Shown: positions 6,862 to 28,600 of the stretch, in pieces
Layout: each line of letters opens with the position of its first letter
Numbering within the stretch: position 1 is the first letter of the stretch
DNA from: Escherichia coli
GTDB taxonomy: Bacteria > Pseudomonadota > Gammaproteobacteria > Enterobacterales > Enterobacteriaceae
Length of the DNA stretch: 64,000 nt
NCBI RefSeq assembly: GCF_013122565.1
Contig: NZ_CP053258.1
Strand: one strand, 5' to 3'
The notes under the pieces: generated by a model
The model's database searches: none
The model's input: the letters and a program-made list of their open reading frames with translations, nothing else
Told to the model about the DNA's origin: nothing
Program-made: the position numbers and the translations under genes

Positions 6862-6871
6862 GCATCTTTCC

Positions 6872-8480: not shown

Positions 8481-8503
8481 CGGGCAAATTGAAACGCATC
8501 TAA

Positions 8504-8761: not shown

Positions 8762-8790
8762 GAACGAATTATAACCACCTCGGGGCCGTG

Positions 8791-8818: not shown

Positions 8819-8999
8819 CCTGACTGTTGGGAAGTTGCGCCGGATCGAACCCATTTCAAGTCCTGGCTACCGGACGGGTGGTGCCGCAGGTAGTGCTCTG
8901 ATCCGGAGTGCAACATGGCGACTCAACATACGTAAACCAGTATCGACAGGCAGTGTAAGGGTAAGGTGCTGGTGTTGCGCTCCTTAATAAGGAGAGCGG

Positions 9000-9089
9000 A
9001 TGGACACGCTGACAAAAAAGTTAACCGTGCTCATTGCCGTACTGGAGTTATTAGTGGCTCTGTTACGGTTGATTGATTTGTTGAAGTAA
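9000..9089 (+). CDS. zorP: 29-aa type I toxin peptide, copy 2 (Q6K variant), MDTLTKKLTVLIAVLELLVALLRLIDLLK
   Basis: AGGAGA SD; one substitution relative to copy 1; O versus P assignment between the two copies is arbitrary. Confidence 0.6.
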   Translation: MDTLTKKLTVLIAVLELLVALLRLIDLLK

Positions 9090-9112
9090 CGGGCAAATTG
9101 AAACGCATCTAA

Positions 9113-9135
9113 GGGGGAATACCGTTTCCCCCTTT
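9113..9135 (+). terminator. Intrinsic terminator after toxin ORF copy 2
   Basis: Same hairpin as 8504-8526. Confidence 0.5.
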
Positions 9136-9270
9136 AATAAAGCTATACTCGTCATACTTCAAGTTGCATGTGCTGCGACTGCGTTCGTTCACCCCGGTCA
9201 CTTACTTTAGTAAGCTCCTGGGAATTCACTCGCTTATCGCCTTCCTGCAACTTGAATTATTTAGAGTATA

Positions 9271-9573
9271 TTATTCTATTTCTTGGTTGAATATATTCTG
9301 TAGTTCGCGATTAAAAATTGCTATTACCGTTTCAGGTGATTCACCTCGTAATTTCCGCTCATCAATACACTCATCTCTTATATAAATCAACGCATCATTT
9401 ATTTGCGGGTCGGCATCATTAAATGTTGGATGTAGCCGGAATCGCTCCAGCCGGTAGACGGAACCTGTAAATAATTCAGAGCATTTATGGATCTCAAGTC
9501 TGAAGGAAAACGGATCTTCAGGTACAGGGACCTCATAATCGTAAATAGCAACCAGCTCTTTTTGCACGATCAT
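9271..9573 (-). CDS. yehK: Small protein YehK
   Basis: 100-aa ORF directly downstream of yehI on the same strand; true start may differ slightly. Confidence 0.6.
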   Translation of the reverse strand: MIVQKELVAIYDYEVPVPEDPFSFRLEIHKCSELFTGSVYRLERFRLHPTFNDADPQINDALIYIRDECIDERKLRGESPETVIAIFNRELQNIFNQEIE

Positions 9574-9632
9574 CGCTTTCCCGTTGGTAAGTCGTGTTGA
9601 AAACGGGCAGTCGCATCACTGCCCGTTGTGTT

Positions 9633-12600: not shown

Positions 12601-13280
12601 GAATGATAATGAGTCCGTGGGCATTCAAGGCCTATCAACTCATTGGCGATTTCTGGTTTTTCCGGGAGGATCAGCGCAATAAAAGGGCGGCGAACTTTGG
12701 TTATTCCTGGCAGTGCGGCAATGAGTTTGTCGGCGCAACGCTGCCAGCAGCTTTCCTCTGCCAGAGAGAGATGCTTACGCAGTCGGAGATCGAATTCGTT
12801 ATAGGTTTCTGATCGATAACCATAGCCATAGTCCTCGTTCTGATACTGCAATGTCACTACCAGAGGATCACTCTCATAACACCGCGCAATAAACTGGCGT
12901 GCAATCACCACCTCAGTCGCATATTCCAGCCCCTCTTGTTGGACGATTTCGTCGAGTAACTGTTGGCTGTCATTTTGCGCGATACAGGCTAGCGCCGCCA
13001 TTGTCCGGGCCGGGATTGAGGGTTTGTGTTCGCCGATCAAGTTGATGGCCTGCGTGATGGCGGACTGCCACTCCAGTGAAAAATTCTCATAACGCCAGAC
13101 AATGTTTTTTTTCTTCTCAGCTTTTTGTAGCAATTCATCACCCAGTGTCTGAATGATGCTTTCAGTGATAACAGGCACTGGTTCGCCCGGCCAATTGCGA
13201 TGGCTGAGTGGTGTTTTGCCTTTTTTATATTTCAGTTCCAGTTGGGCGTTATCCGCCAGCCACGGTAATTCCTTGTCCAT
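9633..13280 (-). CDS. yehI: YehI, 1215-aa paralog of the molR family lacking the N-terminal WGR-like domain
   Basis: C-terminal two-thirds align with the four upstream paralogs (shared AWP..K.A..GL.IL, DRL.P.LGLD, LLPPFRQL blocks); AAGGAA SD 9 nt after upstream stop. Confidence 0.85.
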   Translation of the reverse strand: MDKELPWLADNAQLELKYKKGKTPLSHRNWPGEPVPVITESIIQTLGDELLQKAEKKKNIVWRYENFSLEWQSAITQAINLIGEHKPSIPARTMAALACIAQNDSQQLLDEIVQQEGLEYATEVVIARQFIARCYESDPLVVTLQYQNEDYGYGYRSETYNEFDLRLRKHLSLAEESCWQRCADKLIAALPGITKVRRPFIALILPEKPEIANELIGLECPRTHYHSKEWLKVVANDPTAVRKLDHYWSQDIFSDREASYMSHENHFGYAACAALLREQGLAAIPRLAMYAHKEDCGSLLVQINHPQVIRTLLLVADKNKPSLQRVAKYSKNFPHATLAALAELLALKEPPARPGYPIIEDKKLPAQQKARDEYWRTLLQTLMASQPQLAEEVMQWLSTQARAVLNSYLLAPPKPVIDSTDNSQMPEILVSPPWRGRKKKTSIPHFSLPDLTLAPQTYRSPNKHWTPEQQTAIDHFSAMSFDERLAKRGADTFLRELGFDVHSLEFNKRLLHGQLDAFDAQQLQEYTSIGLLRTYHAYQAKSKQYREEATKALLAQDSIALMGGWRTFQHGFYYGNKKRWGIWNLYLIAQMPHEMAVSCWQQIVEADFHYTGGEYLLSVLGTDALPGLNTAFARHPKEIFPLLIHFGATELALPVARVWRRFAAQRDLARQWILQWPEHTATALIPLVFTKSSDNSEAALLALRLLYEQGHGVLLQTVANRWDRADVWPALEQLLKQSQIEIYPARIPKAPDFWHPAMWSRPRLITNNQPVTDDALEIIGEMLRFTQGGRFYSGLEQLKSFCQPQTLAAFAWDLFTAWQQAGAPAKDNWAFLALSLFGDESTARDLTTQILAWPQEGKSARAVSGLNILTLMNNDMALIQLHHVSQRAKSSSLRENAAEFLQVVAENRGLSQEELADRLVPTLGLDDPQALIFDFGPRQFTVRFDENLNPVIFDQQNVRQKSVPRLRADDDQLKAPEALARLKGLKKDATQVSKNLLPRLEAALRTTRRWSLADFHSLFVNHPFTRLVTQRLIWGVYPANEPRRLLNAFRVAAEGEFCNAQDEPIDLPADALIGIAHPLEMTAEMRSEFAQLFADYEIMPPFRQLSRRTVLLTPDESTSNSLTRWEGKSATVGQLMGMRYKGWESGYEDAFVYDLGEYRLVLKFSPGFNHYNVDSKALMSFRSLRVYRDNKSVTFAELDVFDLSEALSAPDVIFH

Positions 13281-13289
13281 GCTCTTTCC

Positions 13290-16200
13290 TTATTCAAACA
13301 GGGCTTCAATATCATTAATTAACTCGCTGGTGGTGATGGCATCGAGTACGGAGAACTGCGCTTCCTGAGTTGAATTATTCCTCCAGCCATAGCTTTCTGC
13401 TTTGCCTTCCCATAGCCACAGCTTGCTTAAGAGCTGCTCGGCGCTAAGTTCGGCTGGCGACATACCCACAGCAAAGCCTTCATCGATTTCCATGATTAAC
13501 GACCAGCGGCCCAGGGGTTTGATCATCCAGCAGATCCAGCCTCCATCCTGTGGTTCGCCCTTTATCCAGCCTTTATTCGCCAGCCCCATGACCCGACCAC
13601 TCGGGCATTTTCTGCCTGCCCAGCGGGTCAGTTCGCTGGCGTTGCGCTCGGCTTCTGTCAGGGCGTAACTGTTACGGTCAAGCTGACGGAACGGTGGTAG
13701 CAGTTCGTAGTCGGCAAAAAGCTGACCAAAGGCGGCAGCATCCGTCGGTGATATTTCCAGAACGTGAGGAATACCAATAGAGATATCGCCTTCCGGCAGG
13801 GTGAAAAGATCATCGTCAGCGGTGCTGTAACTGTTATCTTCCGCCACGCGAAAGCACGCCAGCAGCTGGTTTTCGGCGCTATAAACGCCCCAAATCAGAC
13901 GACGGGTTAAGTGGCGAACCAGCGGGTGCTCAACCAGGAAAAGCTGAAAGTTTTCCGGCGACCAGCGGCGGCGCAGGCACATGGCGGATTCCAGCCTTGC
14001 TACCTGCTGGGCGGCGACGGTACGCGCATCTTTTTTCAGCAATTTGTAGCGGTTTACCGCCTCATCAGCCCGCGATTCATCATCGCTTTTATTGGGTTTA
14101 GGTAAGTCTTTCAGGCGGCTGCCGGAAACATCACGCACAAACGGTTTTAAGGTTTCATCAAAGCTGACGGTGAACTGGCGTGAGCCGAAATCCAGCAGCA
14201 ACGAACCGTTATCATCCAGACCGAGATCCGGGGCCAGGCGATCTTCTAGCTCCGCCACCGTGAGTTCGCGGCTTTCGGCAATGTCGGCAATTTTTTCTTT
14301 TGCCCGCTCCTGTAATGCTTTGAATTTCAGTTTCTGGGCGATGCCGTTAAGTTGCATCAAGGCGATATCACTACCGATAGTGGCGAGAATATCCAACCCA
14401 ACGGTGGCGCGTTTATGCTGGGATTCACCAGGCCAGGCACGGATTAATGGCGTCAGTTTGCGGGCGGTGTCATCGTTACCGAGAACACCTAACGCGTTGA
14501 ACGCCCAGCTCTCTTTCGACGGCGCGCCAGCGGTCTGCCAGGCGGTAAACAGATCCCAGGCAAATCCCGCCAGTGAGTCGGGGGTACAGGCATCTTTCAC
14601 CTGCAATAATCCCGGATACAGTGCCTCTTCCTGAGGGAAGCGGAGCATTTCACCGAGGTAGAGTAGGGCGCTATCGGGCAGTGATTGGGCGTTTGCTTTT
14701 AATACCGGGCGCGTCCAGAGCGATGGCTGATAAAAGGCCGGAAGAGTGGGGATTTTTGTCGGGTGATTATCTAAGGGATCGAGCGCAAGCAGAGCGTTCA
14801 CCGCGTCTGTTACTTCCGGCTGGTTATAACGCCGGGCGATTTCTTGCAGTAATGGCTGATGACCGTTTTCGGTAAGCATACGCAAGGCAGCGCGGGCGTT
14901 ATCCTGTGCTTCACCGGCTTTGCCGAGCGCGGCAGGCAGCAGGCCGGTAATGGCGTGTTCCGGGTATTTCAACAGCCAGCTACGGGCGTCTTGTCGTAGG
15001 GTTTTGAGTTTGTTGAAGGCGCGGGCAATCAGTGGCGCTAATTCGATAGCCGCAAAATATTGTGCTATAGGCAGCGCTTCTTGCGGATAGCGAGATGCTG
15101 AGTGGATAAAACCTGTTAAACCAGCAAGTCGAAGATGCAACATTACTTGTTTTGCACCTGTATGTGGTTCTTTACTAAGGATGTTCCACATCTCGATAGC
15201 TTTATTAATGGGTAAAACATGGAGTGAAGAAAGATTCCATTCGCCCTGATAAGGGGAGTTATAGGACTTAAAAGCATCAATCAGCGCTGAATAATCTTCA
15301 CGCTGCCAGGCATCCAGTGCTATTTCTGGAACATCAATATAGCCTCTATGTTTGTTCCAATCCCAGCGGTTGAATCCCAGGGAGGTCAGAAAAGCTTTTT
15401 CTCCCTCAGCTTGCTGATGAGGTTGCCAGTTATGCTGCACTTGCAGTGTTTTGCTTTTTGTTTCATTTATTGTACAGAAGGATTCTAGGGATAATGGTGC
15501 TAAATCCAGCACCGAAATCGTCGATTTTTTCTTTTTAGCCAGCCAGGGCGGTGAGATTAGTACGGCAGGCAGCAAATCGGCGTTCGCATAAACTGAAGGT
15601 TGTGTCAGTTGTTGCAGGCATGACTTAAGTTCGGTAACCGCCGGAGCAGATAGCCAGGGAATTACCTGCTCTGCTAATGTTGGTTGTGAGATAAGCATTG
15701 TCATTAGCATCATGCGCCAGCGCTTTTCATCTTTTTGTGCCAGAAGTTCTGCTAATGCCGCCAGCGCTGCATGTGGAAAGCGAACGAAAGCCTTTGTCAT
15801 GCGATCGTGGCAACGCTTTCCCTGCTCGCTTGCATGGATAAGTAGTGTAAGTGCCTGGGGGTGGTTGATATGCATCAACACTTCCCCACATGTGTCACCA
15901 GCAGCGTAAGGAGCAAAACGGGCCAGCGCAGCGACACCTTGCTCCTTGAGTATCGTTGCACACCAGATTTTACCGCCGTAATAATCATCAAATACCTGCC
16001 CAGGCTGTCCTGGATAGTATTTTCCCAGTTCTGCCAATACCTGCTCGTCGGTGGTCGTCAGTTTCAGCCATTCCAGCGCATATAACCCTTTTTGTCCACA
16101 AAGATGTCTGGCAATCTCATGAGCTACTTCTGGTTTTTCCGGCAACAATAGTGCAACCAGTGGCTGGTGCCACGTGGGCATGGTTCCGAGAGCGGCAATC

Positions 16201-17048
16201 AGTTTGTCGGCGCAGCGCTGCCATACATCGTCATTTGCAAGTGAGAGATGCTTACGCAGGCGCATTTCAACCGAAGCGAAGCGTAACAGATAGCCAGGCT
16301 GCCTGTTATCCGGGGTAACCGTAATGAGATGGGCATCATAATCCCAGTCGAAGCGGATGAATTGCAATGCAATGACAACCTCAGTGGCATATTCCAGACC
16401 ACCTTCCTGGACAATTTGATCCATTAGCTCTTCATGATCGTTACGATTGAAGCCTTGTTCCAGCGCAACCAGTACCGCCAGAACCATCGGTGGTAGCGTG
16501 GTGCTAATTGGCGAGTCGATAAGGCCTACGGCTTGTGTAATTGCCTGCTGCCAGTCCAGTGAACAGGTGCTGTAATCGAAGGTGAGCACCTTTTTAAAAC
16601 GCCGGTGAGTATTCGCGGCGACGGAGCGTAGCAGGGTTAATTCATTCTCCTGTGGCACAGGAGCGCCAGGCCAGCGTCGATGACTTAGTGTGGTTGGCGC
16701 AACCTCTGTCGGTAAAATGATTTGGGTGTCGTCTGCCAGCCAGGGGAGGTGGTCTCCAGTAAATGCCGGTTTGTCTTGTGGCAAAGGGGTTATTTCCGGG
16801 CATTCGATAACCTTGCCGGGCGCAGATGTCGGTGTCATCACGGATACTTCTTCTACGTAGCCCTTTTTTGTTTTCTCCGTAATCAGCTTCAGTTCCGCTT
16901 TTTCCGCCGCTGCAGCATCTGCAAAGCTTTTTACCTGGCTTTGCCCGTTAGTACCGACTTTGCCCCAGGTAATATGCAGCTCGTTTCCCTGCTGCTCCAC
17001 CGCCCAGAATTTATGTGATTTTTCATCCTGATAAATATAGGTTTTCAT
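13290..17048 (-). CDS. MolR-family protein, paralog D (1252 aa), N-terminal WGR-like domain
   Basis: Intact ORF; N-terminus MKTYIYQDEKSHKFWAVEQQGNELHITWGKVG; start 12 nt downstream of paralog C stop with AAGGAA SD. Confidence 0.85.
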   Translation of the reverse strand: MKTYIYQDEKSHKFWAVEQQGNELHITWGKVGTNGQSQVKSFADAAAAEKAELKLITEKTKKGYVEEVSVMTPTSAPGKVIECPEITPLPQDKPAFTGDHLPWLADDTQIILPTEVAPTTLSHRRWPGAPVPQENELTLLRSVAANTHRRFKKVLTFDYSTCSLDWQQAITQAVGLIDSPISTTLPPMVLAVLVALEQGFNRNDHEELMDQIVQEGGLEYATEVVIALQFIRFDWDYDAHLITVTPDNRQPGYLLRFASVEMRLRKHLSLANDDVWQRCADKLIAALGTMPTWHQPLVALLLPEKPEVAHEIARHLCGQKGLYALEWLKLTTTDEQVLAELGKYYPGQPGQVFDDYYGGKIWCATILKEQGVAALARFAPYAAGDTCGEVLMHINHPQALTLLIHASEQGKRCHDRMTKAFVRFPHAALAALAELLAQKDEKRWRMMLMTMLISQPTLAEQVIPWLSAPAVTELKSCLQQLTQPSVYANADLLPAVLISPPWLAKKKKSTISVLDLAPLSLESFCTINETKSKTLQVQHNWQPHQQAEGEKAFLTSLGFNRWDWNKHRGYIDVPEIALDAWQREDYSALIDAFKSYNSPYQGEWNLSSLHVLPINKAIEMWNILSKEPHTGAKQVMLHLRLAGLTGFIHSASRYPQEALPIAQYFAAIELAPLIARAFNKLKTLRQDARSWLLKYPEHAITGLLPAALGKAGEAQDNARAALRMLTENGHQPLLQEIARRYNQPEVTDAVNALLALDPLDNHPTKIPTLPAFYQPSLWTRPVLKANAQSLPDSALLYLGEMLRFPQEEALYPGLLQVKDACTPDSLAGFAWDLFTAWQTAGAPSKESWAFNALGVLGNDDTARKLTPLIRAWPGESQHKRATVGLDILATIGSDIALMQLNGIAQKLKFKALQERAKEKIADIAESRELTVAELEDRLAPDLGLDDNGSLLLDFGSRQFTVSFDETLKPFVRDVSGSRLKDLPKPNKSDDESRADEAVNRYKLLKKDARTVAAQQVARLESAMCLRRRWSPENFQLFLVEHPLVRHLTRRLIWGVYSAENQLLACFRVAEDNSYSTADDDLFTLPEGDISIGIPHVLEISPTDAAAFGQLFADYELLPPFRQLDRNSYALTEAERNASELTRWAGRKCPSGRVMGLANKGWIKGEPQDGGWICWMIKPLGRWSLIMEIDEGFAVGMSPAELSAEQLLSKLWLWEGKAESYGWRNNSTQEAQFSVLDAITTSELINDIEALFE

Positions 17049-17060
17049 TGCAAATTCCTT

Positions 17061-18500
17061 TTAATCAAACAGTGATTCAATATCGTTAATCAGCTCGCTG
17101 GCAGTGATGTCGTCGAGCACGGAGAAGGGATAAACCGATTTGCGCGGCGTCAGTTTGTACAACTGAATGTGCTCAATTTTTTGGTTATCGCTGATTTCGG
17201 TGACGGGCAATCCAACACAGAAGCCGGGTGTCACACTCAGTTCGACGTAGCCATCATCCACAGCTTTATAAAATGAGTAATAGCCGCCACCATCCAGAAC
17301 ATCGCCCCGTTGCCAGCCTTTATTCATCAGCCCGGCGACGCGCCAACTCGCTGCCTGGCGACCAGCCCAGCGCTGCAAATCGTTGCTGTTTTTTTCTGAA
17401 TCAGAGAGCTGAGACCAGGGGCGATCAAGTTGACGGAACGGTGGCAGGAGTTCGTAGTCAGAGAACAGTTGGGCAAATTCAGCAGCCTGTGGGGCCGGGA
17501 TTTCCAGCACATGCGGGATACCGATACAGCCCTGCGCAAGGGTAAACGGGGTATCCTGACCGTCGCTAAAACTGCCATCCTCCGCCACGCGAAAACAGCA
17601 AATAAGGTGATTATCAGCGTCATAAATGCCCCACATCAGACGTTGGGTGATATGACGAACCAGGGGATGCTCAACCAGAAACAGGCGGAACTGTTCTGCA
17701 GTCCAGCGGCGACGCTGACACATGGCGGCTTCCAGACGCGAAATCTGTTGTGCAGCTACCGTGCGGACATCTTTTTTCAACAACTTGTAGCGATTTACCG
17801 CTTCCTCAGCCAGCGTTTCATCATCGCTTTTGTTCGGTTTGGGCAGGTCTTTCAGACGGTTGCCGGAAGTATCGCGCACAAACGGTTTTAAGGATTCATC
17901 AAAGCTGACGGTGAACTGGCGTGGGCCGAAATCCAGCAGCAGCGAACCGTTATCATCCAGACCGAGATCGGGCGCTAACCGGTCTTCCAGCTCTGCGACA
18001 GTGAGCTGGCGGCTTTCGGCAATCTGGGCGATTTTAGTTCTAGCCTGATCCTGCAAGGCTTTAAATTTTAGCTTTTGCGCAATGCCGTTAAGCTGCATCA
18101 GGGCGATATCGCTGCCGATAGCAGCAAGAATATCCAGCCCGACAGTGGCGCGTTTATGCTGGGATTCCCCCGGCCAGGCGCGGATGAGCGGGGTGAGTTT
18201 GCGGGCGGTGTCATCGTTACCCAGAATCCCCAGTGTGGTAAATGCCCAGTTATCTTTAGCTGAGCCACTGGCAGATTCCCAACTGAGGAAGAGATCCCAG
18301 GCAAAATCGGCAAGAGATTGCGGGGTACAGGCCTCGATTACCTGTGTAATTCCTGGGTAAAGGGTGGCTTCGCGGGGGAAAGAGAGCATGGTGCACAGGT
18401 GCAGGATGGCTGAATCTGAAAGTGCCTTGCCGTTACTGCGCAGAAGCGGGCGGTGCCATACTTCTGGCGAACACCACCCAGGGAGTTTAGCGATTTTCTG
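17061..18500. repeat. ~1.45-kb near-identical block shared by paralogs C and B (copy 1)
   Basis: C-terminal ~480 codons of paralog C are nearly identical to paralog B (20910..22350); antisense spurious ORFs are duplicated too. Confidence 0.8.
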
Positions 18501-20897
18501 CGGATAGTTTTCCAGCGGATCTGCTGCTAAAAAGTCGGTAAGTGCAGTCATTACCTCAGGTTGTTGGTAACGGCTGGCAATTTTTTTCAGCAACGCGAGA
18601 TGACCATTATTGGCCAGGTAGCGTAATGTCATCCGGGCATCTTGTTGTTCTTTAACTGGTTTACTCAGCGCAATGGGCAGCAGCCCGGTAATGGCATGTT
18701 CCGGGTAGGTGGTGAGCCAATATTCAGCGACATCTCGTACGGATTTTAACTGGCAAAATGCGCGGGCCATCAGCAGGGCAACTTCAGTGGAACCGAATTG
18801 AGCGGCGAGGGGAACCGCCTCCTTAGGGTTTACCAGGGCATAACGCAACAGACCTGGTACCGTAGATAGACCAAATCGCTCAACCACTTTTTCAGCACCC
18901 ACGAGGTGCATGTGTGAGAGTCCATTCCAGATTGAGAGCGCTTTCTCTGCTGGTAGACGAGTGAGTATGGATACAGAAAAGGTAATAAAACCTTCATAAT
19001 CATACTTTGGTCGGGTATTTAACAACGATTCATAATCTTCCGTTTCCAGCAGACGAATGGCCGTTTTTGTTACGCCCCATTTAATATCAAATCTTTCTGG
19101 ATCAGGATTATTCTCATCAAATGCTCCGCTTCTGAATCCCAGGCGGCGTAAGACTTCAGCAGTAGAAGGTATTTCTGCTTCGGGTTGTGGCTGAGGTTTG
19201 GGGCCAATGGACTCCAGAGGTAATACGGGTAATGTAAATATCGTCGTGGCTGATTTATTCTTTTTCTTCAGCCAAATTGGATTAGTTAATATACCGGGTA
19301 ACTCACAAGCATTGGCTATCTCTTCTTTAGCATGCAATTGAGGGAAATAACTGAATAAAAGTTGTTTCTGTTCCTCACTCAACCAGGGCATTGTATTACG
19401 CAAGGTTTGAGCATTACCTAATACAATTTGTTCCATCAGGCGAGAATACCTCAGATTTTTAGCACTAAGCAAAGCTGCAGTAAGGGCATAAAGCGCCGAT
19501 TCTGGGTACTTCGAAGCCGAAATTTCGACACCTATGGCACATTCCTCTTTGATAAACAACGTAACGACATCAGGATGGTTAATTTCCTGAAGTGCGTGTC
19601 TGACAGGATAACTATCGTTAACGCCCTCTTGCAGACGTGACAGCGCATTAAGACCTTGTTCACGCAGTAGGGTTTTAATACAACGCTTCGTCATATCGCC
19701 TCCCCATCCCGTTGTGAGTTCAAGTTGATGGAAATGCTTCAGCAGACACGTTGCTTGTGGGTCAGTTGTGACAAGGGAAAGCCACTCAATCTCTGGGTAA
19801 TCATGCATAGGGGCAATTTCCAGGGCTATCTGATTGGCAATATCTGGTTTTTCTGGTAGCAAAAAAGCAATTAATGGGCGTCTGCGGGCAGGCAGTGAAG
19901 GGAGAGCATCTATGAGTTTATTAGCACAGCGTTGCCAGGTTTCCTCATCTGTGTGCGAAAGGTGTTCTCGTAAACGTAACTCTATTTCGTCGCTGAATCC
20001 ATATTTGTAGCGCATGTCGGAAATATCGTGGCTAAGGCTTACTACAGGTAGATAATAATTGTCTGCCATTTCCCCTCTTCTCAGCGCACTAAAAAGACTA
20101 TTGTAATGAAGTTTTAAAGTGGCATTTTTTGTAGGATCGGTATTTGCGTCGTCAGTCATTTGTACATGCTGTATAGCGATAACTAACTCAGTGGCATACT
20201 CAAGGCCTCGCAGTTGCACTATGCTATCCAGCCATGTATGAGGGCGACCGGGGCAGCCGATAATTAATCTTGTTAGTGTCAATATGGCGTCGGAAAGCAA
20301 CGATCCGTCTTGCTGTAATTTATGGATGCGCGAAATAGTTTCCTGTAACGCCAATTGCCATTCTGACTGGCATTGGCTGACATCGAGCTTTTGCAGACAG
20401 GCAAGGTAAAATGCTGCCCAATATGGGTACTTTTTTAGTTGCATCCAGAAGAAACCATCTTTATCAACAATGTCCAGAGGATCATTAATCAAGTGACGAT
20501 GGCTAAACGGCGCGGGTTCATCATTGGCAAAAATAACAATTGACTCACCGTCCTTCAGCCAGGGCGGCGTTTCCAACGTGGGCATCGCTTGTGGCTGTGC
20601 CGTTTCAGGCGTTGTGAAGTTTCCGGTTGGTATTGCTAACTCTTGTACTGAAATTGTGCTTGATATCGGAGAATTTATGATGGTTTCTGGCGAACCATGC
20701 TTCACATATCCCTTCTTCATCTTCTCCGCAATCAGCTTCAGTTCCGCTTTTTCCGCCGCTGCAGCATCTGCAAAGCTTTTTACCTGGCTTTGCCCGTTAG
20801 TACCGACTTTGCCCCAGGTAATATGCAGCTCGTTTCCCTGCTGCTCCACCGCCCAGAATTTATGTGATTTTTCATCCTGATAAATATAGGTTTTCAT
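17061..20897 (-). CDS. MolR-family protein, paralog C (1278 aa), N-terminal WGR-like domain
   Basis: Intact ORF; C-terminal ~480 aa nearly identical to paralog B. Confidence 0.85.
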   Translation of the reverse strand: MKTYIYQDEKSHKFWAVEQQGNELHITWGKVGTNGQSQVKSFADAAAAEKAELKLIAEKMKKGYVKHGSPETIINSPISSTISVQELAIPTGNFTTPETAQPQAMPTLETPPWLKDGESIVIFANDEPAPFSHRHLINDPLDIVDKDGFFWMQLKKYPYWAAFYLACLQKLDVSQCQSEWQLALQETISRIHKLQQDGSLLSDAILTLTRLIIGCPGRPHTWLDSIVQLRGLEYATELVIAIQHVQMTDDANTDPTKNATLKLHYNSLFSALRRGEMADNYYLPVVSLSHDISDMRYKYGFSDEIELRLREHLSHTDEETWQRCANKLIDALPSLPARRRPLIAFLLPEKPDIANQIALEIAPMHDYPEIEWLSLVTTDPQATCLLKHFHQLELTTGWGGDMTKRCIKTLLREQGLNALSRLQEGVNDSYPVRHALQEINHPDVVTLFIKEECAIGVEISASKYPESALYALTAALLSAKNLRYSRLMEQIVLGNAQTLRNTMPWLSEEQKQLLFSYFPQLHAKEEIANACELPGILTNPIWLKKKNKSATTIFTLPVLPLESIGPKPQPQPEAEIPSTAEVLRRLGFRSGAFDENNPDPERFDIKWGVTKTAIRLLETEDYESLLNTRPKYDYEGFITFSVSILTRLPAEKALSIWNGLSHMHLVGAEKVVERFGLSTVPGLLRYALVNPKEAVPLAAQFGSTEVALLMARAFCQLKSVRDVAEYWLTTYPEHAITGLLPIALSKPVKEQQDARMTLRYLANNGHLALLKKIASRYQQPEVMTALTDFLAADPLENYPQKIAKLPGWCSPEVWHRPLLRSNGKALSDSAILHLCTMLSFPREATLYPGITQVIEACTPQSLADFAWDLFLSWESASGSAKDNWAFTTLGILGNDDTARKLTPLIRAWPGESQHKRATVGLDILAAIGSDIALMQLNGIAQKLKFKALQDQARTKIAQIAESRQLTVAELEDRLAPDLGLDDNGSLLLDFGPRQFTVSFDESLKPFVRDTSGNRLKDLPKPNKSDDETLAEEAVNRYKLLKKDVRTVAAQQISRLEAAMCQRRRWTAEQFRLFLVEHPLVRHITQRLMWGIYDADNHLICCFRVAEDGSFSDGQDTPFTLAQGCIGIPHVLEIPAPQAAEFAQLFSDYELLPPFRQLDRPWSQLSDSEKNSNDLQRWAGRQAASWRVAGLMNKGWQRGDVLDGGGYYSFYKAVDDGYVELSVTPGFCVGLPVTEISDNQKIEHIQLYKLTPRKSVYPFSVLDDITASELINDIESLFD

Positions 20898-20909
20898 TGC
20901 AAATTCCTT

Positions 20910-22350
20910 TTAATCAAACAGTGATTCAATATCGTTAATCAGCTCGCTGGCAGTGATGTCGTCGAGCACGGAGAAGGGATAAACCGATTTGCGCGGCGTC
21001 AGTTTGTACAACTGAATGTGCTCAATTTTTTGGTTATCGCTGATTTCGGTGACGGGCAATCCAACACAGAAGCCGGGTGTCACACTCAGTTCGACGTAGC
21101 CATCATCCACAGCTTTATAAAATGAGTAATAGCCGCCACCATCCAGAACATCGCCCCGTTGCCAGCCTTTATTCATCAGCCCGGCGACGCGCCCACTCGC
21201 TGCCTGGCGACCAGCCCAGCGCTGCAAATCGTTGCTGTTTTTTTCTGAATCAGAGAGCTGAGACCAGGGGCGATCAAGTTGACGGAACGGTGGCAGGAGT
21301 TCGTAGTCAGAGAACAGTTGGGCAAATTCAGCAGCCTGTGGGGCCGGGATTTCCAGCACATGCGGGATACCGATACAGCCCTGCGCAAGGGTTAACGGGT
21401 TATCGTGACCGTCGCTAAAACTGCCATCCTCCGCCACGCGAAAACAGCAAATAAGCTGATTATCAGCGTCATAAATGCCCCACATCAGACGTTGGGTGAT
21501 ATGACGAACCAGGGGATGCTCAACCAGAAACAGACGGAACTGTTCTGCAGTCCAGCGGCGACGCTGACACATGGCGGCTTCCAGACGCGAAATCTGTTGT
21601 GCAGCTACCGTGCGGACATCTTTTTTCAACAACTTGTAGCGACTTACCGCTTCCTCAGCCAGAGTTTCATCATCGCTTTTGTTCGGTTTGGGCAGGTCTT
21701 TCAGACGGTTGCCGGAAGCATCGCGCACAAACGGTTTTAAGGATTCATCAAAGCTGACGGTGAACTGGCGTGGGCCGAAATCCAGCAGCAGCGAACCGTT
21801 ATCATCCAGACCGAGATCGGGCGCTAACCGGTCTTCCAGCTCTGCGACAGTGAGCTGGCGGCTTTCGGCAATCTGGGCGATTTTAACTCTTGCCTGATCC
21901 TGCAAGGCTTTAAATTTTAGCTTTTGCGCAATGCCGTTAAGCTGCATAAGAGCGATATCGCTGCCGATAGCAGCAAGAATATCCAGCCCGACAGTGGCGC
22001 GTTTATGCTGGGATTCCCCTGGCCAGGCGCGGATGAGCGGGGTGAGTTTGCGGGCGGTGTCATCGTTACCCAGAATCCCCAGCGCGGTAAATGCCCAGTT
22101 ATCTTTAGCGGAGCCACTGGCAGATTCCCAACTGAGGAAGAGATCCCAGGCGAAATCAGCAAGAGACTGCGGAGTACAGGCCTCGATTACCTGTGTAATC
22201 CCGGGGTAAAGGGTGGCTTCACGGGGGAAAGAGAGCATGGTGCACAAGTTCAGGATAGCTGAGTCAGGAAGTGCCTTGCCGTTACTGTGCAGAAGCGGGC
22301 GATGCCATACTTCTGGCGAACACCAGGTGGGGAGTTTGGCGATTTTCTGC
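20910..22350. repeat. ~1.45-kb near-identical block shared by paralogs C and B (copy 2)
   Basis: See 17061..18500. Confidence 0.8.
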
Positions 22351-24650
22351 GGAAAATTATCGAGTGGGTCGCAGTTAAGGACATCTAACAAACCTGTAAG
22401 CACTTCTGGCTGATTATAGCGGTGGGCAATTTGTTCCATTAACGGCTGATGCCCATGATGAGCCAAATAGCGTATTGCCATCACAGCATCCTCACGTTCA
22501 CTGCCCGGTTTGCCGAGTACAGCAGGTAATAGACCTGTAATAGCATGTTCCGGATAGGTTAATAACCAACGCTGTGCGACGTCACGTACAGATTTTAGCT
22601 GACGAAAAGCGCGTGCCATTAATAGCGCCACGTCGGTTGTACCAAAACGTGCGGCTAAAGGAATGGCTTCCTGAGGTACGACTAAGGCGTGACGCAGCAA
22701 GCCGGGTAATGTGGGAAGACCGTAATAGTCCACTACTTCGCATGCGTTAATCAGATGTAGGTGAGTCAGTGCGTTCCATATTTTCAGTGCTTTATTTTCT
22801 GTTAGCTGAAGCAATACAGACACATTGACAAGGATATGACTTGCCCACCGAGGTTTATCCCAGATCTTTAATAAAGCTTCGTAATTGTCTTGCTCGAAAA
22901 AATCAATGGCAGCCTGAGGTATACCCCAACCAAGCTCTTCGCAATGGAAGTTCAACAAATCCAGGATATCTTTCGCTGATGGGGATGGCGCAGATGGCTC
23001 AGTCAGATTTTTTGTTGCGGGGATAGATTCCAGGGGGGAAAGAGGTAATACCCGGAGAGTGAGGTTGATACCAGCAACCTTTTTCTTTTTTTTCACCCAT
23101 GAAGGGGCGATCAATATACTAGGTAACTCATTCTGATGAGCAATTTTTTCGCTGGACATAAGCTGAGGAAAATAACTAAATAAAATTTGTTGCTGTTTTT
23201 CGTCAAGGCAGGGTAGCGTTTTATGTAAGGCTTGCGCATTACCCAAGATGATGCGCTCCAGTAAACGATAATAGCGCGGGTTATTTGTGTGATTTAAGGC
23301 TTTTGTTAATGCATAAAGTGCAGCTTCTGGATGTAAATTTGTTGCGCATTCCACTTCACTGATACATTCTTCTTTTATTAATATATTAATGGCGTCAGGA
23401 TGATTAACTTGTGTAATTAGATTTTTAACTGAATAACTATCCTTTATCCAACGCTGAAGAAGCGGAAGAGCTTTTACCCCTCGTTCGCGCAGTAATGTCG
23501 CAGTGCATTTTTCAGCCATCTGCCAGTCGTTATAGCGCTTAAGTTGGTTAAGATTCATTAATTCATTGAGTGCCTGCGCATCTGTGGCAACGATATCCAA
23601 CCATTCCATTTCTGGGTAATTAACACATTGCACTAAATCAAGGACAATTTGATTAGCAATTTCAGGTTGTTCAGGCAAAAGAAAACCAATTAAAGGACGT
23701 TTACGTGGAGACAGGAAAGGCAACGCTTGAGTAAGCTTTTTCATGCACCGTTGCCATGTTTTTTCATCAGTGCGCGAGAGATGATTTCGCAAGTGAAAAT
23801 CTACAGTGCTGAAGCCGAACTCAAAACGTTGTTCTGATATTGTGTTACTGAGAATAAGCGTTGGTACGGAATTATTTGTAAAAAAATTGTATTCCATGCG
23901 AACATACAAAAGGCATTTATTTAATGCATCACAATTTCCTGGATCTTGATTTTGATCATCAGATATCTGAATTTGCTGCAATAGCAAGACTAATTCGGTC
24001 GCGTATTCTACCCCATGTTGTTGCACCAGATAATCAAAAAGATCATTGACACTATCGCTATTTTGCATAAGTAACTTGACCAGCAAAAAGAATGCATCGG
24101 AGAAAATAGAACCGTCTATATTTTTCTGCTGAACGCGCATGATTGCTTCATCCCGGCCTCGTTGCCATTCCGGGCGGCAGTCACTCACATCAAAATGCTG
24201 TAATTGTGCAAGAAAATAGTATTCCTCATATTTGTTTTCCCATAAGAATGACCATAACGAGATATCTTTAGCAAACGTGCTGACACTGTCTGCTGGGAAT
24301 TTCCTACTGCTAAATACTCTCTTCGTTTCGAGAATAATTGGTTCAATGTCTGCAATCCACGGTGGTGTGTCGACATCAGTAATAATTGGATGTTGTTCGC
24401 TATCATCATCTGTGGTGGGAACAGCAATCAGCATGTTTATATCGTCAGTCGATTTTACATACCCCTTCTTCACCTTCTCCGCAATCAGCTTCAGTTCCGC
24501 TTTTTCCGCCGTTGCAGCATCTGCAAAGCTTTTTACCTGACTTTGCCCGTTAGTGCCGACTTTGCCCCAGTTGATATGCAGCTCGTTGTCTTGCTGCTCA
24601 ACCGCCCAGAATTTATGTGATTTTTCGTCCTGATAGATATAGGTTTTCAT
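20910..24650 (-). CDS. MolR-family protein, paralog B (1246 aa), N-terminal WGR-like domain
   Basis: Intact ORF; same N- and C-terminal blocks as paralog C, divergent middle. Confidence 0.85.
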   Translation of the reverse strand: MKTYIYQDEKSHKFWAVEQQDNELHINWGKVGTNGQSQVKSFADAATAEKAELKLIAEKVKKGYVKSTDDINMLIAVPTTDDDSEQHPIITDVDTPPWIADIEPIILETKRVFSSRKFPADSVSTFAKDISLWSFLWENKYEEYYFLAQLQHFDVSDCRPEWQRGRDEAIMRVQQKNIDGSIFSDAFFLLVKLLMQNSDSVNDLFDYLVQQHGVEYATELVLLLQQIQISDDQNQDPGNCDALNKCLLYVRMEYNFFTNNSVPTLILSNTISEQRFEFGFSTVDFHLRNHLSRTDEKTWQRCMKKLTQALPFLSPRKRPLIGFLLPEQPEIANQIVLDLVQCVNYPEMEWLDIVATDAQALNELMNLNQLKRYNDWQMAEKCTATLLRERGVKALPLLQRWIKDSYSVKNLITQVNHPDAINILIKEECISEVECATNLHPEAALYALTKALNHTNNPRYYRLLERIILGNAQALHKTLPCLDEKQQQILFSYFPQLMSSEKIAHQNELPSILIAPSWVKKKKKVAGINLTLRVLPLSPLESIPATKNLTEPSAPSPSAKDILDLLNFHCEELGWGIPQAAIDFFEQDNYEALLKIWDKPRWASHILVNVSVLLQLTENKALKIWNALTHLHLINACEVVDYYGLPTLPGLLRHALVVPQEAIPLAARFGTTDVALLMARAFRQLKSVRDVAQRWLLTYPEHAITGLLPAVLGKPGSEREDAVMAIRYLAHHGHQPLMEQIAHRYNQPEVLTGLLDVLNCDPLDNFPQKIAKLPTWCSPEVWHRPLLHSNGKALPDSAILNLCTMLSFPREATLYPGITQVIEACTPQSLADFAWDLFLSWESASGSAKDNWAFTALGILGNDDTARKLTPLIRAWPGESQHKRATVGLDILAAIGSDIALMQLNGIAQKLKFKALQDQARVKIAQIAESRQLTVAELEDRLAPDLGLDDNGSLLLDFGPRQFTVSFDESLKPFVRDASGNRLKDLPKPNKSDDETLAEEAVSRYKLLKKDVRTVAAQQISRLEAAMCQRRRWTAEQFRLFLVEHPLVRHITQRLMWGIYDADNQLICCFRVAEDGSFSDGHDNPLTLAQGCIGIPHVLEIPAPQAAEFAQLFSDYELLPPFRQLDRPWSQLSDSEKNSNDLQRWAGRQAASGRVAGLMNKGWQRGDVLDGGGYYSFYKAVDDGYVELSVTPGFCVGLPVTEISDNQKIEHIQLYKLTPRKSVYPFSVLDDITASELINDIESLFD

Positions 24651-24662
24651 TGCTAAATCCTT

Positions 24663-27600
24663 TTAATCAAACAGTGATTCGATGTCGTTAATCAGCTCGC
24701 TGGCGGTGATGTCGTTGAGCACGGAGAAAGTGGGTGAGGATTGTTTACCATAGCGATCATAAGGGGCGGTGATTTTTACGCTTTCGACAGGCAGCAGGTC
24801 GCTATACCCCGTTTCGCCATAAATTAATGAAAAAGGTTCTGTTTCAAGTTCGAGAGCGCCATAAGGGGTAGATTTGCGCATCGCATAGATGCTGCCGCTT
24901 TCTTCCAGACGTTGCCAGCCTCTGCGTTCCAGCCCGACAATGCGTCCGGCCTGGCAGAGACGTCCGTTCCAGCGTGACAATTCATGGGCATCACGCTCGT
25001 TATCCGCAAGGTGGTAACTACCACGATCGAGCTGTTGGAAAGGGGGAAGCAGTTCGTAATCAATGTATATTTGCCTGAATGCAGCGGCGGATTCAGGGGG
25101 GATTTCCAGCACATGCGGAATACCGATGTTTCCTGCTGGCAGCGTGAATAGCTCATCCTGCGCATCGCTGTAAGTGCTGTCTTCTGCCACACGAAAACAG
25201 GTGATAAGGGCGTTTTCATCGTTATAAACCCCCCATAACAGCCGTCGGGTTAAGTGACGTACCAGCGGATGCTCCACCAGAAACAGGCGGAACTGCTCTG
25301 CCGTCCAGCGTCTGCGCTGGCACATAGCCTGCTCCAGACGATCAATCTGCTGGCTGGCAATGGCGCGCACATCTTTCTTCAATTGTTTAAAGAGGTTAAC
25401 GGCGTCAGTTGCCAGTGTTTGATCATCGCTCTGGTTTGGTTTGGGTAAATCTTTCAGGACTTTGCCGTTTGCGTCGCGAACCACGGGTTTCAAGGTTTCG
25501 TTAAAACCAACGGTGAATTGACGTGGGCCGAAATCAAGTGTCAGCGAGCCATTGCTATCAAGCCCTAAATCTGGAGCCAGGCGGTCTTCCAGTTCAGCCA
25601 TAGTCAGCCCACGGTTTTCAGCAACTATGTTGATTTTCTCGCGGGCATGTTCCTGTAATGCTTTGAATTTAATTTTTCGCGCGATGCCATTAAGCAGCAT
25701 TAGCGCAACATCGCTGCCAATATCAGCTAATACATCCAGCCCGGACACCGCCCGTTTATGCTGGGATTCCCCAGGCCAGGCGCGGATGAGCGGAGTTAAT
25801 TTACGCGCGGTGTCGTCATTGCCTAAAATCCCAAGCGAAGTAAATGCCCAGTTTTCTTTTGCTGGGGCACCAGCTTCTGTCCAGGCGGTATACAGATCCC
25901 AGCCAAAGTCAGCCAGTGATTCGCGGGTGAAGGTTTCTCTAATGATATCCAGCCCAGCGTAGGCGGTAATGTCGCGTGGAAAGCTCAACATTGTGCCGAG
26001 GTGGCGCATAGCGTCATCTGGCAGAGGCAGGTTGTTACTTTTAAGCCGAGGTCTGTGCCATAAGGTGAACTGATAAAAGCCGGGCAGTGGGGCGATTTTT
26101 GCAGGATATTCTTCCAGTGGGTCGCTATCAAATAATGTTGCCAGCGCAGCTAAAACATCAGGTTGATTATATCCTTGGGCGATTTCCTCAATCGTTTCTC
26201 GCTGGTTTAAATTCACCAGCAGGCGGAGCGCCTGGCGGGCACAATCACGATCTTTTCCTTTTTTGCCCAGGGCCACAGGAAGTAGCCCGGCGGCGGCATG
26301 GCGCGGATAATCAGTTAGCCAGTTTCGCGCATCTTCATAAGACATTTTTTTCTGTAATTGTTGCGCCATCGGTAAGGCCAGTTCACTGACACCGAGGAAA
26401 AAGGGGAAGAAGCACAGGCGTCGTGGATCACGTTGCAGGCAGGTCATAAATGCAGGTATGGCGGCGCTACCAAAAAGTGCCAGAATATTTCCCTCACCAG
26501 AGTAGTTATCTTCTTTGACTATCTGGTTAAGAAAAGAAATGGCCTGTTGACCAGGCAGGTAACAGAGGGCAATAAGATTCCAGCTTTTGTATGCATTGTT
26601 ATGGTATTGCACAAATTCAGCATTCAATGCTGGAAAATCGAAGCGTAGCAGGGCATCAACGGCACTTTGTGGCGCCGGAATTTTTTCGTATATTTTTTCT
26701 CCGCTCTCCCGCCATTTTTCAAAACCAAGATGCCACAGTATTTGTTGCTCCGGTGTAAGCGGTATTAAGTGTTTCTCCCAGCTTGCTTTTTTCATCGGTG
26801 CCAGGTCGGTAAACAATGTTTGTTTTGTCGCCTGCTGTTGGGCTATTTGCTGGAAGCGGGTGATAAGGTAAGTACGGGTCAGTTTTTTGGCAATCTCTGG
26901 AGTGATATCCGAAACAGAAGGAACTGGGAGCACAGGAAGATCAAACACCGGCGTATTTTTCTTTTTCTCTTTGGTCATCCAGGGAGGCGAAACAAACAGC
27001 TCTGGCAACATATCCGCAGTGGCATATTCACATTCTTCAGCGACTGACTGCGGACGACATTCAGATAAGATGCCAGCGGCTTTGGCATTAACCCAGGGAA
27101 TGACGTCGCATACTAACTCTGGCGTGATGGTAATCAGTTTGATAAGTGCGTTACGCCACTGTGCATCTTCATGTATTGCCAGCAAAGTAGCATAAGCGGC
27201 AAGAGCCGCAGCGGGATGTTTTTGACAGGCTTTGCTTAAGTATTCCAGGTGCTTTTTCTTGCCAATCACACCGAGGATCAGAATTTGAATCGCATCCGGG
27301 TGATTCGTTTTCCATAGCCATTTGACAAGATTTTCAGTCTCGCTGTTGCGCTCGAAAAGATAAGTGGGATTGTCAGAATGCTCTTCCGTAAACTCAAGAA
27401 GGATCTGGCTTACACCCCGAATTCCATTATTCGCCAGCAACATTGCCAGATAAGCGCGAAAATTACGAAAATCACGATACAACGGTGGGAAGTCGTATTT
27501 TTCCACTGTACTAAGAGCAGTATCATCGGTTATCACCAGTCTTAACCAGGTCATCGCCGGAACGTTTTGGTCTGCATAGCGTAGAGCCATAGCATTGGCA

Positions 27601-28469
27601 ATATCCGGGCGTTCAGGGAGCAGTAACGCCGCAAAAGGTTGCCGTGCTGGAGATAGCGAGGGAATAGCCGCGAGTACTTTATCTACACAGCGTTGCCACT
27701 CATCTTCTGAAGCGAGTGAAAGATGATGACATAGACGTTGATGCCAACTAGGTAGCGATTCTGCTTCGTGATTAGGTGGAATGATGGTGGTTACTGCGCC
27801 TTTTACTGGTTTATATCTAAGTTGAATAGCGAGAAGGGCAATTTCAACGGCGCTTTCCAGACCACAGCGAATGACTAAGTCATCGACCAGTTCATCTGCA
27901 GAGTAAGAGTTCCAGAAACTCCAGAGCAATGCTGCATCAGATTGCGCACTCCCTGTCTGTTGATTACCCTGAACTCGCATTTGTAACTCAGCAAAAGCAT
28001 GCTGCCAGTTTTCTGGATAAGAACGGTAATTGTTGTCGGGATCATATGCCCTGGTGTTATCTGCAATACGCTTCCATATCTCACCGTCTTTGCGCAGATA
28101 ATTGATCTCTCTGGGGCGAGAGCGATGAGGGAAAGCAAATCGATTAATATCGTCAGTTACCGGAATGACTGCATCATCAGCCAGCCATGGGCGTTTGTTT
28201 TTACTCTCAAGGGAAGTTTCAACTTCAGGAGTGGCTTTGGTGCTGGAGATATGCACGTTTGCTGAAGCATCTTCCACATAGCCTTTTTTCGTTTTCTCTG
28301 CGATAAGCTTTAGTTCCGCTTTTGCCGCTGCCGCAGCATCCGCAAAACTTTTTACCTGGCTTTGCCCTTGGGTGCCAACTTTTCCCCAACTGATATGCAA
28401 CTCGTTTCCCTGTTGCTCCACCGCCCAGAATTTATGTGATTTTTCGTCCTGATAGATAAAGCGTCTCAT
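24663..28469 (-). CDS. molR: MolR-family protein, paralog A (1268 aa), first gene of the array next to metG
   Basis: Intact ORF; N-terminus MRRFIYQDEKSHKFWAVEQQGNELHISWGKVG; occupies the K-12 molR (pseudogene) position. Confidence 0.8.
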   Translation of the reverse strand: MRRFIYQDEKSHKFWAVEQQGNELHISWGKVGTQGQSQVKSFADAAAAAKAELKLIAEKTKKGYVEDASANVHISSTKATPEVETSLESKNKRPWLADDAVIPVTDDINRFAFPHRSRPREINYLRKDGEIWKRIADNTRAYDPDNNYRSYPENWQHAFAELQMRVQGNQQTGSAQSDAALLWSFWNSYSADELVDDLVIRCGLESAVEIALLAIQLRYKPVKGAVTTIIPPNHEAESLPSWHQRLCHHLSLASEDEWQRCVDKVLAAIPSLSPARQPFAALLLPERPDIANAMALRYADQNVPAMTWLRLVITDDTALSTVEKYDFPPLYRDFRNFRAYLAMLLANNGIRGVSQILLEFTEEHSDNPTYLFERNSETENLVKWLWKTNHPDAIQILILGVIGKKKHLEYLSKACQKHPAAALAAYATLLAIHEDAQWRNALIKLITITPELVCDVIPWVNAKAAGILSECRPQSVAEECEYATADMLPELFVSPPWMTKEKKKNTPVFDLPVLPVPSVSDITPEIAKKLTRTYLITRFQQIAQQQATKQTLFTDLAPMKKASWEKHLIPLTPEQQILWHLGFEKWRESGEKIYEKIPAPQSAVDALLRFDFPALNAEFVQYHNNAYKSWNLIALCYLPGQQAISFLNQIVKEDNYSGEGNILALFGSAAIPAFMTCLQRDPRRLCFFPFFLGVSELALPMAQQLQKKMSYEDARNWLTDYPRHAAAGLLPVALGKKGKDRDCARQALRLLVNLNQRETIEEIAQGYNQPDVLAALATLFDSDPLEEYPAKIAPLPGFYQFTLWHRPRLKSNNLPLPDDAMRHLGTMLSFPRDITAYAGLDIIRETFTRESLADFGWDLYTAWTEAGAPAKENWAFTSLGILGNDDTARKLTPLIRAWPGESQHKRAVSGLDVLADIGSDVALMLLNGIARKIKFKALQEHAREKINIVAENRGLTMAELEDRLAPDLGLDSNGSLTLDFGPRQFTVGFNETLKPVVRDANGKVLKDLPKPNQSDDQTLATDAVNLFKQLKKDVRAIASQQIDRLEQAMCQRRRWTAEQFRLFLVEHPLVRHLTRRLLWGVYNDENALITCFRVAEDSTYSDAQDELFTLPAGNIGIPHVLEIPPESAAAFRQIYIDYELLPPFQQLDRGSYHLADNERDAHELSRWNGRLCQAGRIVGLERRGWQRLEESGSIYAMRKSTPYGALELETEPFSLIYGETGYSDLLPVESVKITAPYDRYGKQSSPTFSVLNDITASELINDIESLFD

Positions 28470-28577
28470 TCTGCATCCCTGTAATTTTATCCAGTTGAAT
28501 GCAGATGCTACCAGTATTTATGCGGGTTAGAGAGAGACAAAATCGCAAGAAAACAACTTTAGGAATTTATAAAGAAA

Positions 28578-28600
28578 AGGCGCTGTCGATGCAGCGCCTT
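28578..28600 (-). terminator. Probable metG intrinsic terminator
   Basis: aaggcgctg-tcgatg-cagcgcctt hairpin followed on minus strand by T-rich run. Confidence 0.5.

Follow-up and report, generated by a model that had tools for sequence, protein, structure and literature searches.

Evidence for gene conversion and unequal crossing-over in a tandem array of DUF4132 genes of Escherichia coli

Introduction

Tandem gene copies that are almost identical at their ends and very different in between raise the question of what keeps some segments uniform while others diverge. One such locus lies in a 64,000-nucleotide stretch of Escherichia coli DNA (assembly GCF_013122565.1, contig NZ_CP053258.1), referred to here as the window. 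Between positions 9633 and 28469, on the minus strand, the window carries five large, intact tandem open reading frames (ORFs) that encode MolR/YehI (DUF4132) paralogs and are separated by gaps of 9-12 nt. In transcription order they are named g5, g4, g3, g2 and g1. An earlier reading of the letters alone, called here the original prediction, covered the first four of these genes as paralogs A, C, B and D, while g1 lay outside its coordinates; it proposed gene conversion among the copies and a locus prone to recombination. The explanation favored here, to which we assign a probability of about 85%, is that homologous recombination homogenizes the ends of the five genes by conversion and changes their number by unequal crossing-over, whereas the middles stay distinct.

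The first gene, g5 (24663-28469), encodes 1268 amino acids (aa) and lies beside the metG-proximal promoter. It is followed by g4 (20910-24650; 1246 aa), g3 (17061-20897; 1278 aa) and g2 (13290-17048; 1252 aa), the last being the ortholog of the body of K-12 molR. Each of these four proteins combines a WGR head with DUF4132. The array closes with g1 (9633-13280; 1215 aa), a YehI-type gene that lacks the WGR head.

Repeat structure of the array

The mosaic was assessed by a codon-based five-way alignment, by sliding-window identity and by exact comparison at an offset of 3849 bp. Between g3 and g4, identity is 93% over the first ~200 nt, 45-68% in the middle and 97-100% over the last ~1.44 kb. 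Near-identity of these two genes over their C-terminal ~480 codons, together with strong divergence in the middle, had been proposed in the original prediction, and both claims hold, the former nearly to the base: 17061-18504 and 20910-22353 differ at only 38 of 1444 positions (97.4% identity). The same prediction described the WGR-coding 5' ends as a second, separate set of ~200-bp repeats. These heads, located at 16855-17048 (g2), 20704-20897 (g3), 24457-24650 (g4) and 28276-28469 (g5), are indeed repeats, with identities over 189 nt of 96.8% for g2/g3, 93.1% for g3/g4, 90.5% for g2/g4 and 82-85% for g5 against the others, but their separateness does not hold for g2, g3 and g4, where a single repeat crosses the gene boundary.

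This continuous direct repeat extends over 1650 bp (16855-18504 and 20704-22353; 45 differences, 97.3% identity). Each copy consists of the WGR head of the downstream gene, an identical 12-nt spacer and the C-terminal 1444 nt of the upstream gene, the genes being g2 and g3 in the first copy, and g3 and g4 in the second. A third, shorter copy of the junction module at 24454-24728 comprises the g4 head, the spacer and the last 66 nt of g5, and is 92.7% identical to 20701-20975 and 90.6% identical to 16851-17126. The edges of the long repeat are sharp, with identity falling to 62% from position 18505 and to 28% below 16855, in line with the expectation of sharply bounded blocks rather than uniform divergence. 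Within it lies a perfect 464-bp run (16881-17344, equal to 20730-21193), and the differences along the C-terminal block rise stepwise, from 1 in 483 to 8 in 493 and 29 in 468 positions, so that the interior of the repeat looks like a series of nested tracts of different ages.

The middles present a different picture. The variable middle of g3 (18505-20703, minus strand), which encodes an N-terminal linker and an alpha-solenoid region, is not homogenized, and that of g4 (22354-24453, minus strand) has diverged from it to the point where the synonymous substitution rate (dS) is saturated. Their GC content is 45.5% and 41.9%, respectively, compared with 52-54% in the C-terminal blocks and 49% in the whole window, which may reflect either a foreign origin of the middles as cassettes or GC-biased conversion of the ends. 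One further claim, that g2 shares a nearly identical segment of ~130 codons with g3 and g4, is overstated, as positions 14025-14415 reach only 84% identity in DNA and 88% in protein, with a nonsynonymous rate (dN) of 0.04-0.09 and a dS of 0.5-1.3. A similarity of this degree needs no conversion, and purifying selection or an old exchange would suffice to produce it.

Gene conversion and selective constraint

Synonymous positions provide the means of separating conversion from constraint. Values of dS are 0-0.25 in the C-terminal block of g3/g4 and 0.04 in the g2/g3 head, in contrast to saturation in the middles. At residues conserved between g3 and g4, identical codons are used at 431 of 451 positions in the C-terminal block, compared with 115 of 317 (36%) in the middle (Fisher p = 2e-76), and in the g2/g3 head all 53 of 53 conserved residues share their codons. 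A four-sequence test, in which g3 and g4 of the window were compared with g3 and g4 of E. coli MB53, a strain carrying g4-g3-g2-g1, gives a similar result. Over the last 980 nt, 28 sites group the paralogs by genome and none by orthology, while in the middle 248 sites follow orthology and one follows genome. The tails of g3 and g4 are 98-99.8% identical within a genome and 93-97% identical to their orthologs, and window-specific variants are common to the g3/g2 and g4/g3 junctions.

The same pattern is visible between strains and between genera. Ortholog dS is 0.13-0.28 in the ends compared with 0.04-0.09 in the middles, the C-terminal part exceeding the middle by a factor of 2-3.5, as expected if conversion brings paralogous sequence into the ends. 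Between the g5 and g2 heads of the window identity is 84.7%, but each reaches only 76-77% with its ortholog in Klebsiella oxytoca, whereas the gene bodies follow orthology. Concerted evolution between paralogs is thus seen, with within-genome similarity exceeding ortholog similarity inside the tract, flanks that follow orthology, and homogenization that includes synonymous and spacer sites. Purifying selection acts on all segments, with ortholog dN/dS ratios of 0.04-0.43 across head, middle and tail (0.16-0.43 in the middles and 0.30 in that of g3), which indicates that all parts encode functional protein. Taken together, the homogenization of synonymous sites and the opposite grouping of sites in tail and middle (28:0 compared with 1:248) support the gene conversion put forward in the original prediction and show that the uniform ends are not a product of constraint.

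Chi sites were considered as a cause of a recombination hotspot and discarded, as two are present in g1/g2 and none in the g3-g5 repeats. A separate observation concerns 11 substitutions clustered within 30 nt (~1198-1227 nt from the stop codon), a patch that is common to g4 of MB53 (15311-17509) and g4 of strain 6EVA and differs from all other g3/g4 tails. Both g2 and g5 were compared as possible donors and neither matches, and the patch looks like a micro-conversion from an unsampled paralog.

Copy number, chimeric genes and unequal crossing-over

The locus was compared across 5426 complete E. coli genomes, from which individual arrangements were read. Units at this position range from two to five, consistent with the suggestion that copy number differs between strains. 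K-12 has two copies in the order metG-molR(pseudogene)-yehI, and C4 has three units. Strain 06-00048 also has three, arranged g3-g2-g1, the first being a fusion of a g5 head to g3, while 6EVA and USMARC-49610 carry the four-unit arrangement g5-g4-g2-g1. In MB53 a g4 truncated by the insertion sequence IS1 is followed by g3-g2-g1, and in PT62 g5-g4 and a fragment of g3 are followed by IS1. One to three WGR heads per genome are detectable in 3035 genomes. The g5 middle is present in 1643 genomes and the window-type g2 middle, at full length, in 689, with diverged matches to the latter in 4855; the middles of g3 and g4 are found in four and nine genomes, respectively (each <0.2%). In the outgroups Escherichia whittamii, Escherichia sp. 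E1V33 and K. oxytoca the arrangement is g5-g2-g1, and the two-unit state of K-12 is therefore derived, with g3 and g4 being additions within Escherichia.

Two chimeric first genes show where the exchanges occur. K-12 molR has the promoter and nt 1-143 of the g5 type; from ~nt 144 it matches g2 of E. whittamii, a separate gene there, at 88-100% identity. In 06-00048, the first gene starts with the promoter and initial codons of g5, switches at ~nt 40-130 and is of the g3 type from ~nt 100. Both switch points lie inside the ~190-bp WGR head, and it is the g5 head (28270-28469, minus strand), the most divergent of the four, that served as the crossover substrate in both strains. In 6EVA, g4 contains a single switch from g4-type to g3-type sequence 914-1024 nt from the stop codon, which would be the expected product of a crossover deleting g3. 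The match of the g3 head to the g2 head (96.8%) and the shared tails of g3 and g4 are compatible with stacking by unequal exchange as well as with conversion.

The view that long direct repeats 3.8 kb apart favor unequal crossing-over (measured offset 3849 bp) is supported by chimeras whose switches fall inside the repeat. The accompanying claim, that such crossing-over explains the fragmented molR of K-12, holds in part. The gene is a chimera of a g5 head and a g2 body, but its fragmentation is due to a frameshift and an internal stop, as given in the RefSeq record, and represents later point-mutational decay rather than recombination. An additional detail of this gene is found at codon 15, where K-12 reads KFRAVEQQ and all other copies read KFWAVEQQ; the loss of this conserved tryptophan points to decay in addition to the annotated frameshift and stop.

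Mobile elements also affect the region. IS1, together with ISVsa5, truncates g4 in MB53 (locus positions 17565-19665), and in PT62 an IS1 (locus positions 10834-11531) removes the stretch from g3 to part of yehL. A blaCTX-M-15 transposon has been described in the same DUF4132 region in a sublineage of sequence type 131 (ST131) (PMC9334617). The locus is a recurrent target of insertions and deletions as well as of homologous exchange. In g1, a stretch of ~600 nt in the middle (~11348-11960) has no match of at least 88%, while its flanks are 94-97% identical to K-12 and to several other yehI alleles; codons 71-800 compared with K-12 give a dN of 0.16 and a dS of 0.37. A divergent middle between matching flanks indicates that the paralog lacking the WGR head is also an allelic mosaic.

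Proposed mechanism and alternative explanations

In the proposed mechanism, the array would supply the conserved yehL-yehM-yehP-yehQ gene system with its variable component, present in several copies. Each protein is composed of a short WGR head (missing in g1), a middle of divergent alpha-solenoid sequence and a C-terminal half that is conserved. As DNA homology between the copies is confined to the ends, homologous recombination, which we infer to depend on RecA, would act only there. Non-reciprocal conversion would repeatedly homogenize these ends, examples being the 1.65-kb g3/g4 repeat, with its very recent tract of ~0.66 kb, and the WGR heads. Unequal crossing-over in the same repeats would remove or add whole units of 3.7-3.85 kb, leading to between two and five copies and to chimeric first genes. 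The middles would be too divergent to recombine and would be kept distinct by purifying selection.

Several observations weigh against this mechanism or narrow its basis. The full five-gene array is present in none of the 5426 genomes, none of which covers at least 80% of it. The C-terminal type of g3 and g4 is common to both genes in every strain examined, and part of their similarity may therefore stem from one old event. The concerted signal comes from few strains, and the crossover in 6EVA involves only four truly informative tail sites. The low GC content of the g3 and g4 middles fits an import of foreign cassettes as a contributor. In tandem DUF4132 arrays of other phyla no comparable blocks of high identity were found, the units being typically 55-73% identical. 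With regard to the proteins themselves, fold searches return only generic HEAT/ARM helical-repeat matches, and no experiment linking DUF4132 proteins to YehLMPQ was found.

An explanation without recombination would attribute the similar ends solely to purifying selection on WGR and DUF4132, with the middle drifting. Conservation within the family is concentrated in the ends (phmmer matches mostly cover the C-terminal ~600 aa, and dN is lowest there), and selection is enough to account for the g2 segment at 14025-14415 and for much of the similarity of g5. As a full account it is nevertheless very improbable, since synonymous sites and the non-coding spacer are identical as well, paralogs group by genome, and the middle, judging from its dN/dS ratios, is not drifting freely. 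Selection alone is unable to generate the synonymous, codon and within-genome grouping patterns, and for g3/g4 and the g2/g3 head it is refuted by the synonymous-site and four-sequence tests. Even less credible is a false expansion or mis-join across repeats during assembly. The perfect 464-bp repeat could mislead a short-read assembler, the exact g3 protein has no other record, and the coverage of the array by other complete genomes is incomplete, as noted above. Against this, the middles of g3 and g4 differ at ~40-55% of positions over ~2.2 kb and hence are not copies of one gene, all five ORFs are intact, and every junction is present in independent complete genomes (g5-g4 in 6EVA, PT62 and USMARC-49610; g4-g3 in MB53 and PT62; g3-g2 in MB53 and 06-00048; g2-g1 in many). 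The check for assembly collapse or expansion recommended in the original prediction thus makes an artefact unlikely.

Cassette replacement deserves more weight, although it is unlikely to be the whole explanation. According to this model, g3 and g4 were alleles or recent duplicates whose middles were swapped, by way of the conserved ends, for imported divergent DNA, and which were then stacked by unequal exchange between haplotypes; the ends would be alike because they were never replaced. The AT-rich middles and their rarity are in agreement with such a history, as are the sharply different allele classes of g5, g2 and g1, some with divergent middle patches, and the existence of strains with only g3 (06-00048) or only g4 (6EVA). 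A crossover that placed g3 upstream of g2 would likewise lead to the resemblance of the g3 head to the g2 head. What replacement alone does not account for is the within-genome grouping of the tails (28 sites to none), the perfect 464-bp run inside an older block of 94-98% identity, and the concerted pattern of the WGR heads at the genus level. It probably acts together with conversion rather than instead of it, and recurrent conversion and unequal crossing-over in the shared ends remain the preferred explanation of the array.

Predicted transcription unit

The promoter region of the array (28470-28600, minus strand) contains, at 28577-28600, the terminator-like hairpin of metG. Over the 120 nt preceding g5, identity to the sequence ahead of K-12 molR is 98-100%, and a molR promoter activated by BglJ-RcsB has been mapped in the corresponding region of K-12 (PMC3950696). 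At the other end, a strong hairpin with a 10-pair stem, including 6 GC pairs, lies just 3' of the g1 stop codon (9602-9627) and is likely to mark the end of a five-gene transcription unit. The four junctions of 9-12 nt contain no terminator-like sites, and each spacer carries TAA followed by an AAGGA ribosome-binding site 7 nt ahead of the next ATG. From this arrangement we infer that the five genes form a single operon.

Protein family and conserved neighborhood

Membership of the DUF4132 family is clear for g3, in which the Pfam model PF13569 is matched over its full length at approximately aa 1012-1195 (E = 4.2e-46). The five paralogs can all be aligned, their proteins being 35-69% identical to that of g3, and RefSeq names their orthologs as DUF4132 domain-containing. 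The domain is placed near the C-terminus in all five, and g2-g5 begin with a WGR head of ~66 codons. Residues 1 to ~70 of these four proteins match the WGR-containing PDB entry 2ra8 (E = 8e-16 for g3) and the first 72-87 positions of NF047464, and RefSeq labels the orthologs as 'WGR and DUF4132'. In NCBIfam only the WGR head was matched, through an unrelated Leptospira model and far under its cutoff. An AlphaFold2 model of g4 residues 71-1246, with a mean predicted local distance difference test score (pLDDT) of 88.9 and a predicted template modeling score (pTM) of 0.82, contains two alpha-solenoid regions followed by C-terminal alpha/beta domains and thereby backs the domain arrangement proposed above. 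The family comprises 5818 representatives at E <= 1e-3 (phmmer), the C-terminal ~600 aa being its conserved part.

The genes downstream belong to the same conserved neighborhood. At 1456-8026 (minus strand; coordinates are ORF limits) the window encodes YehL (AAA_5 ATPase), YehM (DUF5682), YehP (VWA_CoxE) and YehQ (SWIM), as named by Pfam and RefSeq. YehL matches AAA_5 at 3e-34, with an additional weak match to bpMoxR, and YehP matches VWA_CoxE at 9.5e-72, and together they form an adjacent pair of MoxR-type AAA+ and VWA proteins. Of 39 loci from many phyla, 27 have one to four DUF4132 genes and, after them, genes for homologs of YehL, YehM, YehP and usually YehQ. The system is conserved in Proteobacteria, Actinobacteria, Bacillota, Planctomycetota and Verrucomicrobia, and tandem multi-copy arrangements of DUF4132 are common in the family. 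In one Bacillota metagenome-assembled genome, three tandem units that are 78-82% identical over their full length (8331-17914) precede yehL/M/P/Q homologs; this amplification arose independently and fairly recently, in a phylum distant from that of E. coli.

It may be proposed, with modest confidence, that each paralog docks to the shared YehLMPQ proteins through its conserved C-terminal half and has a different partner or target by virtue of its variable solenoid. A more speculative extension, which we consider possible but doubtful, is that the paralogs are diversified recognition or adaptor subunits of a widespread YehL-YehM-YehP-YehQ machine, perhaps a conflict or surveillance system, whose ends would serve both for docking and as handles for recombination and whose solenoid cassettes would form a repertoire. 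A multi-copy, rapidly diversifying DUF4132 component points in any case to where specificity may lie. A search of PADLOC-DB 2.0 with g1, g3, g5 and YehK/L/M/P/Q returned no defense family at E <= 0.01. Near-full-length matches in PHROGs, all to families of unknown function, were set aside, as they appear to stem from chromosomal DNA included in prophage predictions and carry no functional information.

Relation to known systems and significance

Concerted evolution by RecA-dependent gene conversion is known for tufA/tufB of Salmonella and E. coli and for the rRNA operons, in which paralogs are also closer within a genome than orthologs are between genomes, synonymous sites included. The window differs in that its copies lie in tandem as direct repeats, homogenization is confined to the terminal modules while the middles remain at 45-68% identity, and copies are gained and lost through the same repeats. 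Rhs/YD-repeat and other polymorphic loci combine a conserved core with variable tips and orphan cassettes, and resemble the array in using conserved segments as recombination handles around divergent, low-GC cassettes and in differing in content from strain to strain. Unlike them, the DUF4132 array has no toxin/immunity pairs and no PADLOC match, its variable part is an internal alpha-solenoid, and every copy is full-length and has a ribosome-binding site of its own. Programmed cassette conversion for antigenic variation, as in pilE/pilS and vlsE, likewise involves tandem copies with conserved flanks and variable middles, but silent, promoterless partial cassettes and a single expression site are absent from the array, where all five ORFs are complete.

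Partnerships of MoxR-type AAA+ ATPases with VWA proteins are represented by RavA-ViaA, CoxD-CoxE and the MoxR-vWA ternary systems. The likeness lies in YehL and YehP, encoded beside the array, whereas the yeh system adds YehM, YehQ and one to several DUF4132 proteins, conserved jointly across phyla. The closest relative is the molR (yehH)/yehI pair of K-12, which belongs to the same family, occupies the same position between metG and yehK and shares the promoter region, yehI being g1. It differs in having two copies, one of them a decayed chimeric molR, in place of five intact genes that include the rare g3 and g4.

The process is of a known kind, namely concerted evolution and unequal exchange in tandem paralogs, and is undescribed for this locus in the literature searched. 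That search returned no paper on recombination at the locus and none on what DUF4132 or YehLMPQ do; the papers found deal only with the promoter, zor-orz, the ST131 transposon and a mention in Deinococcus. The array offers a clean natural example of segment-limited concerted evolution inside one probable operon, and it explains the odd annotation of K-12, in which molR is a crossover chimera that decayed afterwards. As many as five intact genes occur in other strains, which makes K-12 a poor reference for the locus. In practical terms, repeats of 0.46-1.65 kb can compromise short-read assembly and gene-presence typing, and resistance transposons also insert at this site (PMC9334617).

Neighboring elements

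The array is flanked by apbC-metG on one side and lies upstream of yehK-yehLMPQ on the other. These flanks identify it as the E. coli locus. The metG gene is 99.85% identical to that of 6EVA and PT62 and 97.6% identical to that of K-12. A mean identity of ~92% to E. coli genomes, which could have pointed to another species, results from paralogs matching one another and was discounted in view of metG. Within the array, g5 is 97.4% identical to its orthologs in 6EVA and PT62, and g1 is 97.9% identical to its ortholog in 6EVA, annotated there as a DUF4132 protein.

A second pair of direct repeats adjoins the array. Between yehL and yehK, a tandem repeat of ~610 bp (8035-9142) contains two genes for the Rfam antitoxin small RNA (sRNA) OrzO-P, at 8072-8145 and 8681-8754 on the minus strand. 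They belong to the zor-orz type I toxin-antitoxin pair, which has been described for O157:H7 and is absent from K-12 (PMC2887945). Elsewhere in the window, a thiamine pyrophosphate (TPP) riboswitch at 39506-39602 (plus strand) precedes thiM; it is an ordinary element, annotated as such in E. coli records.

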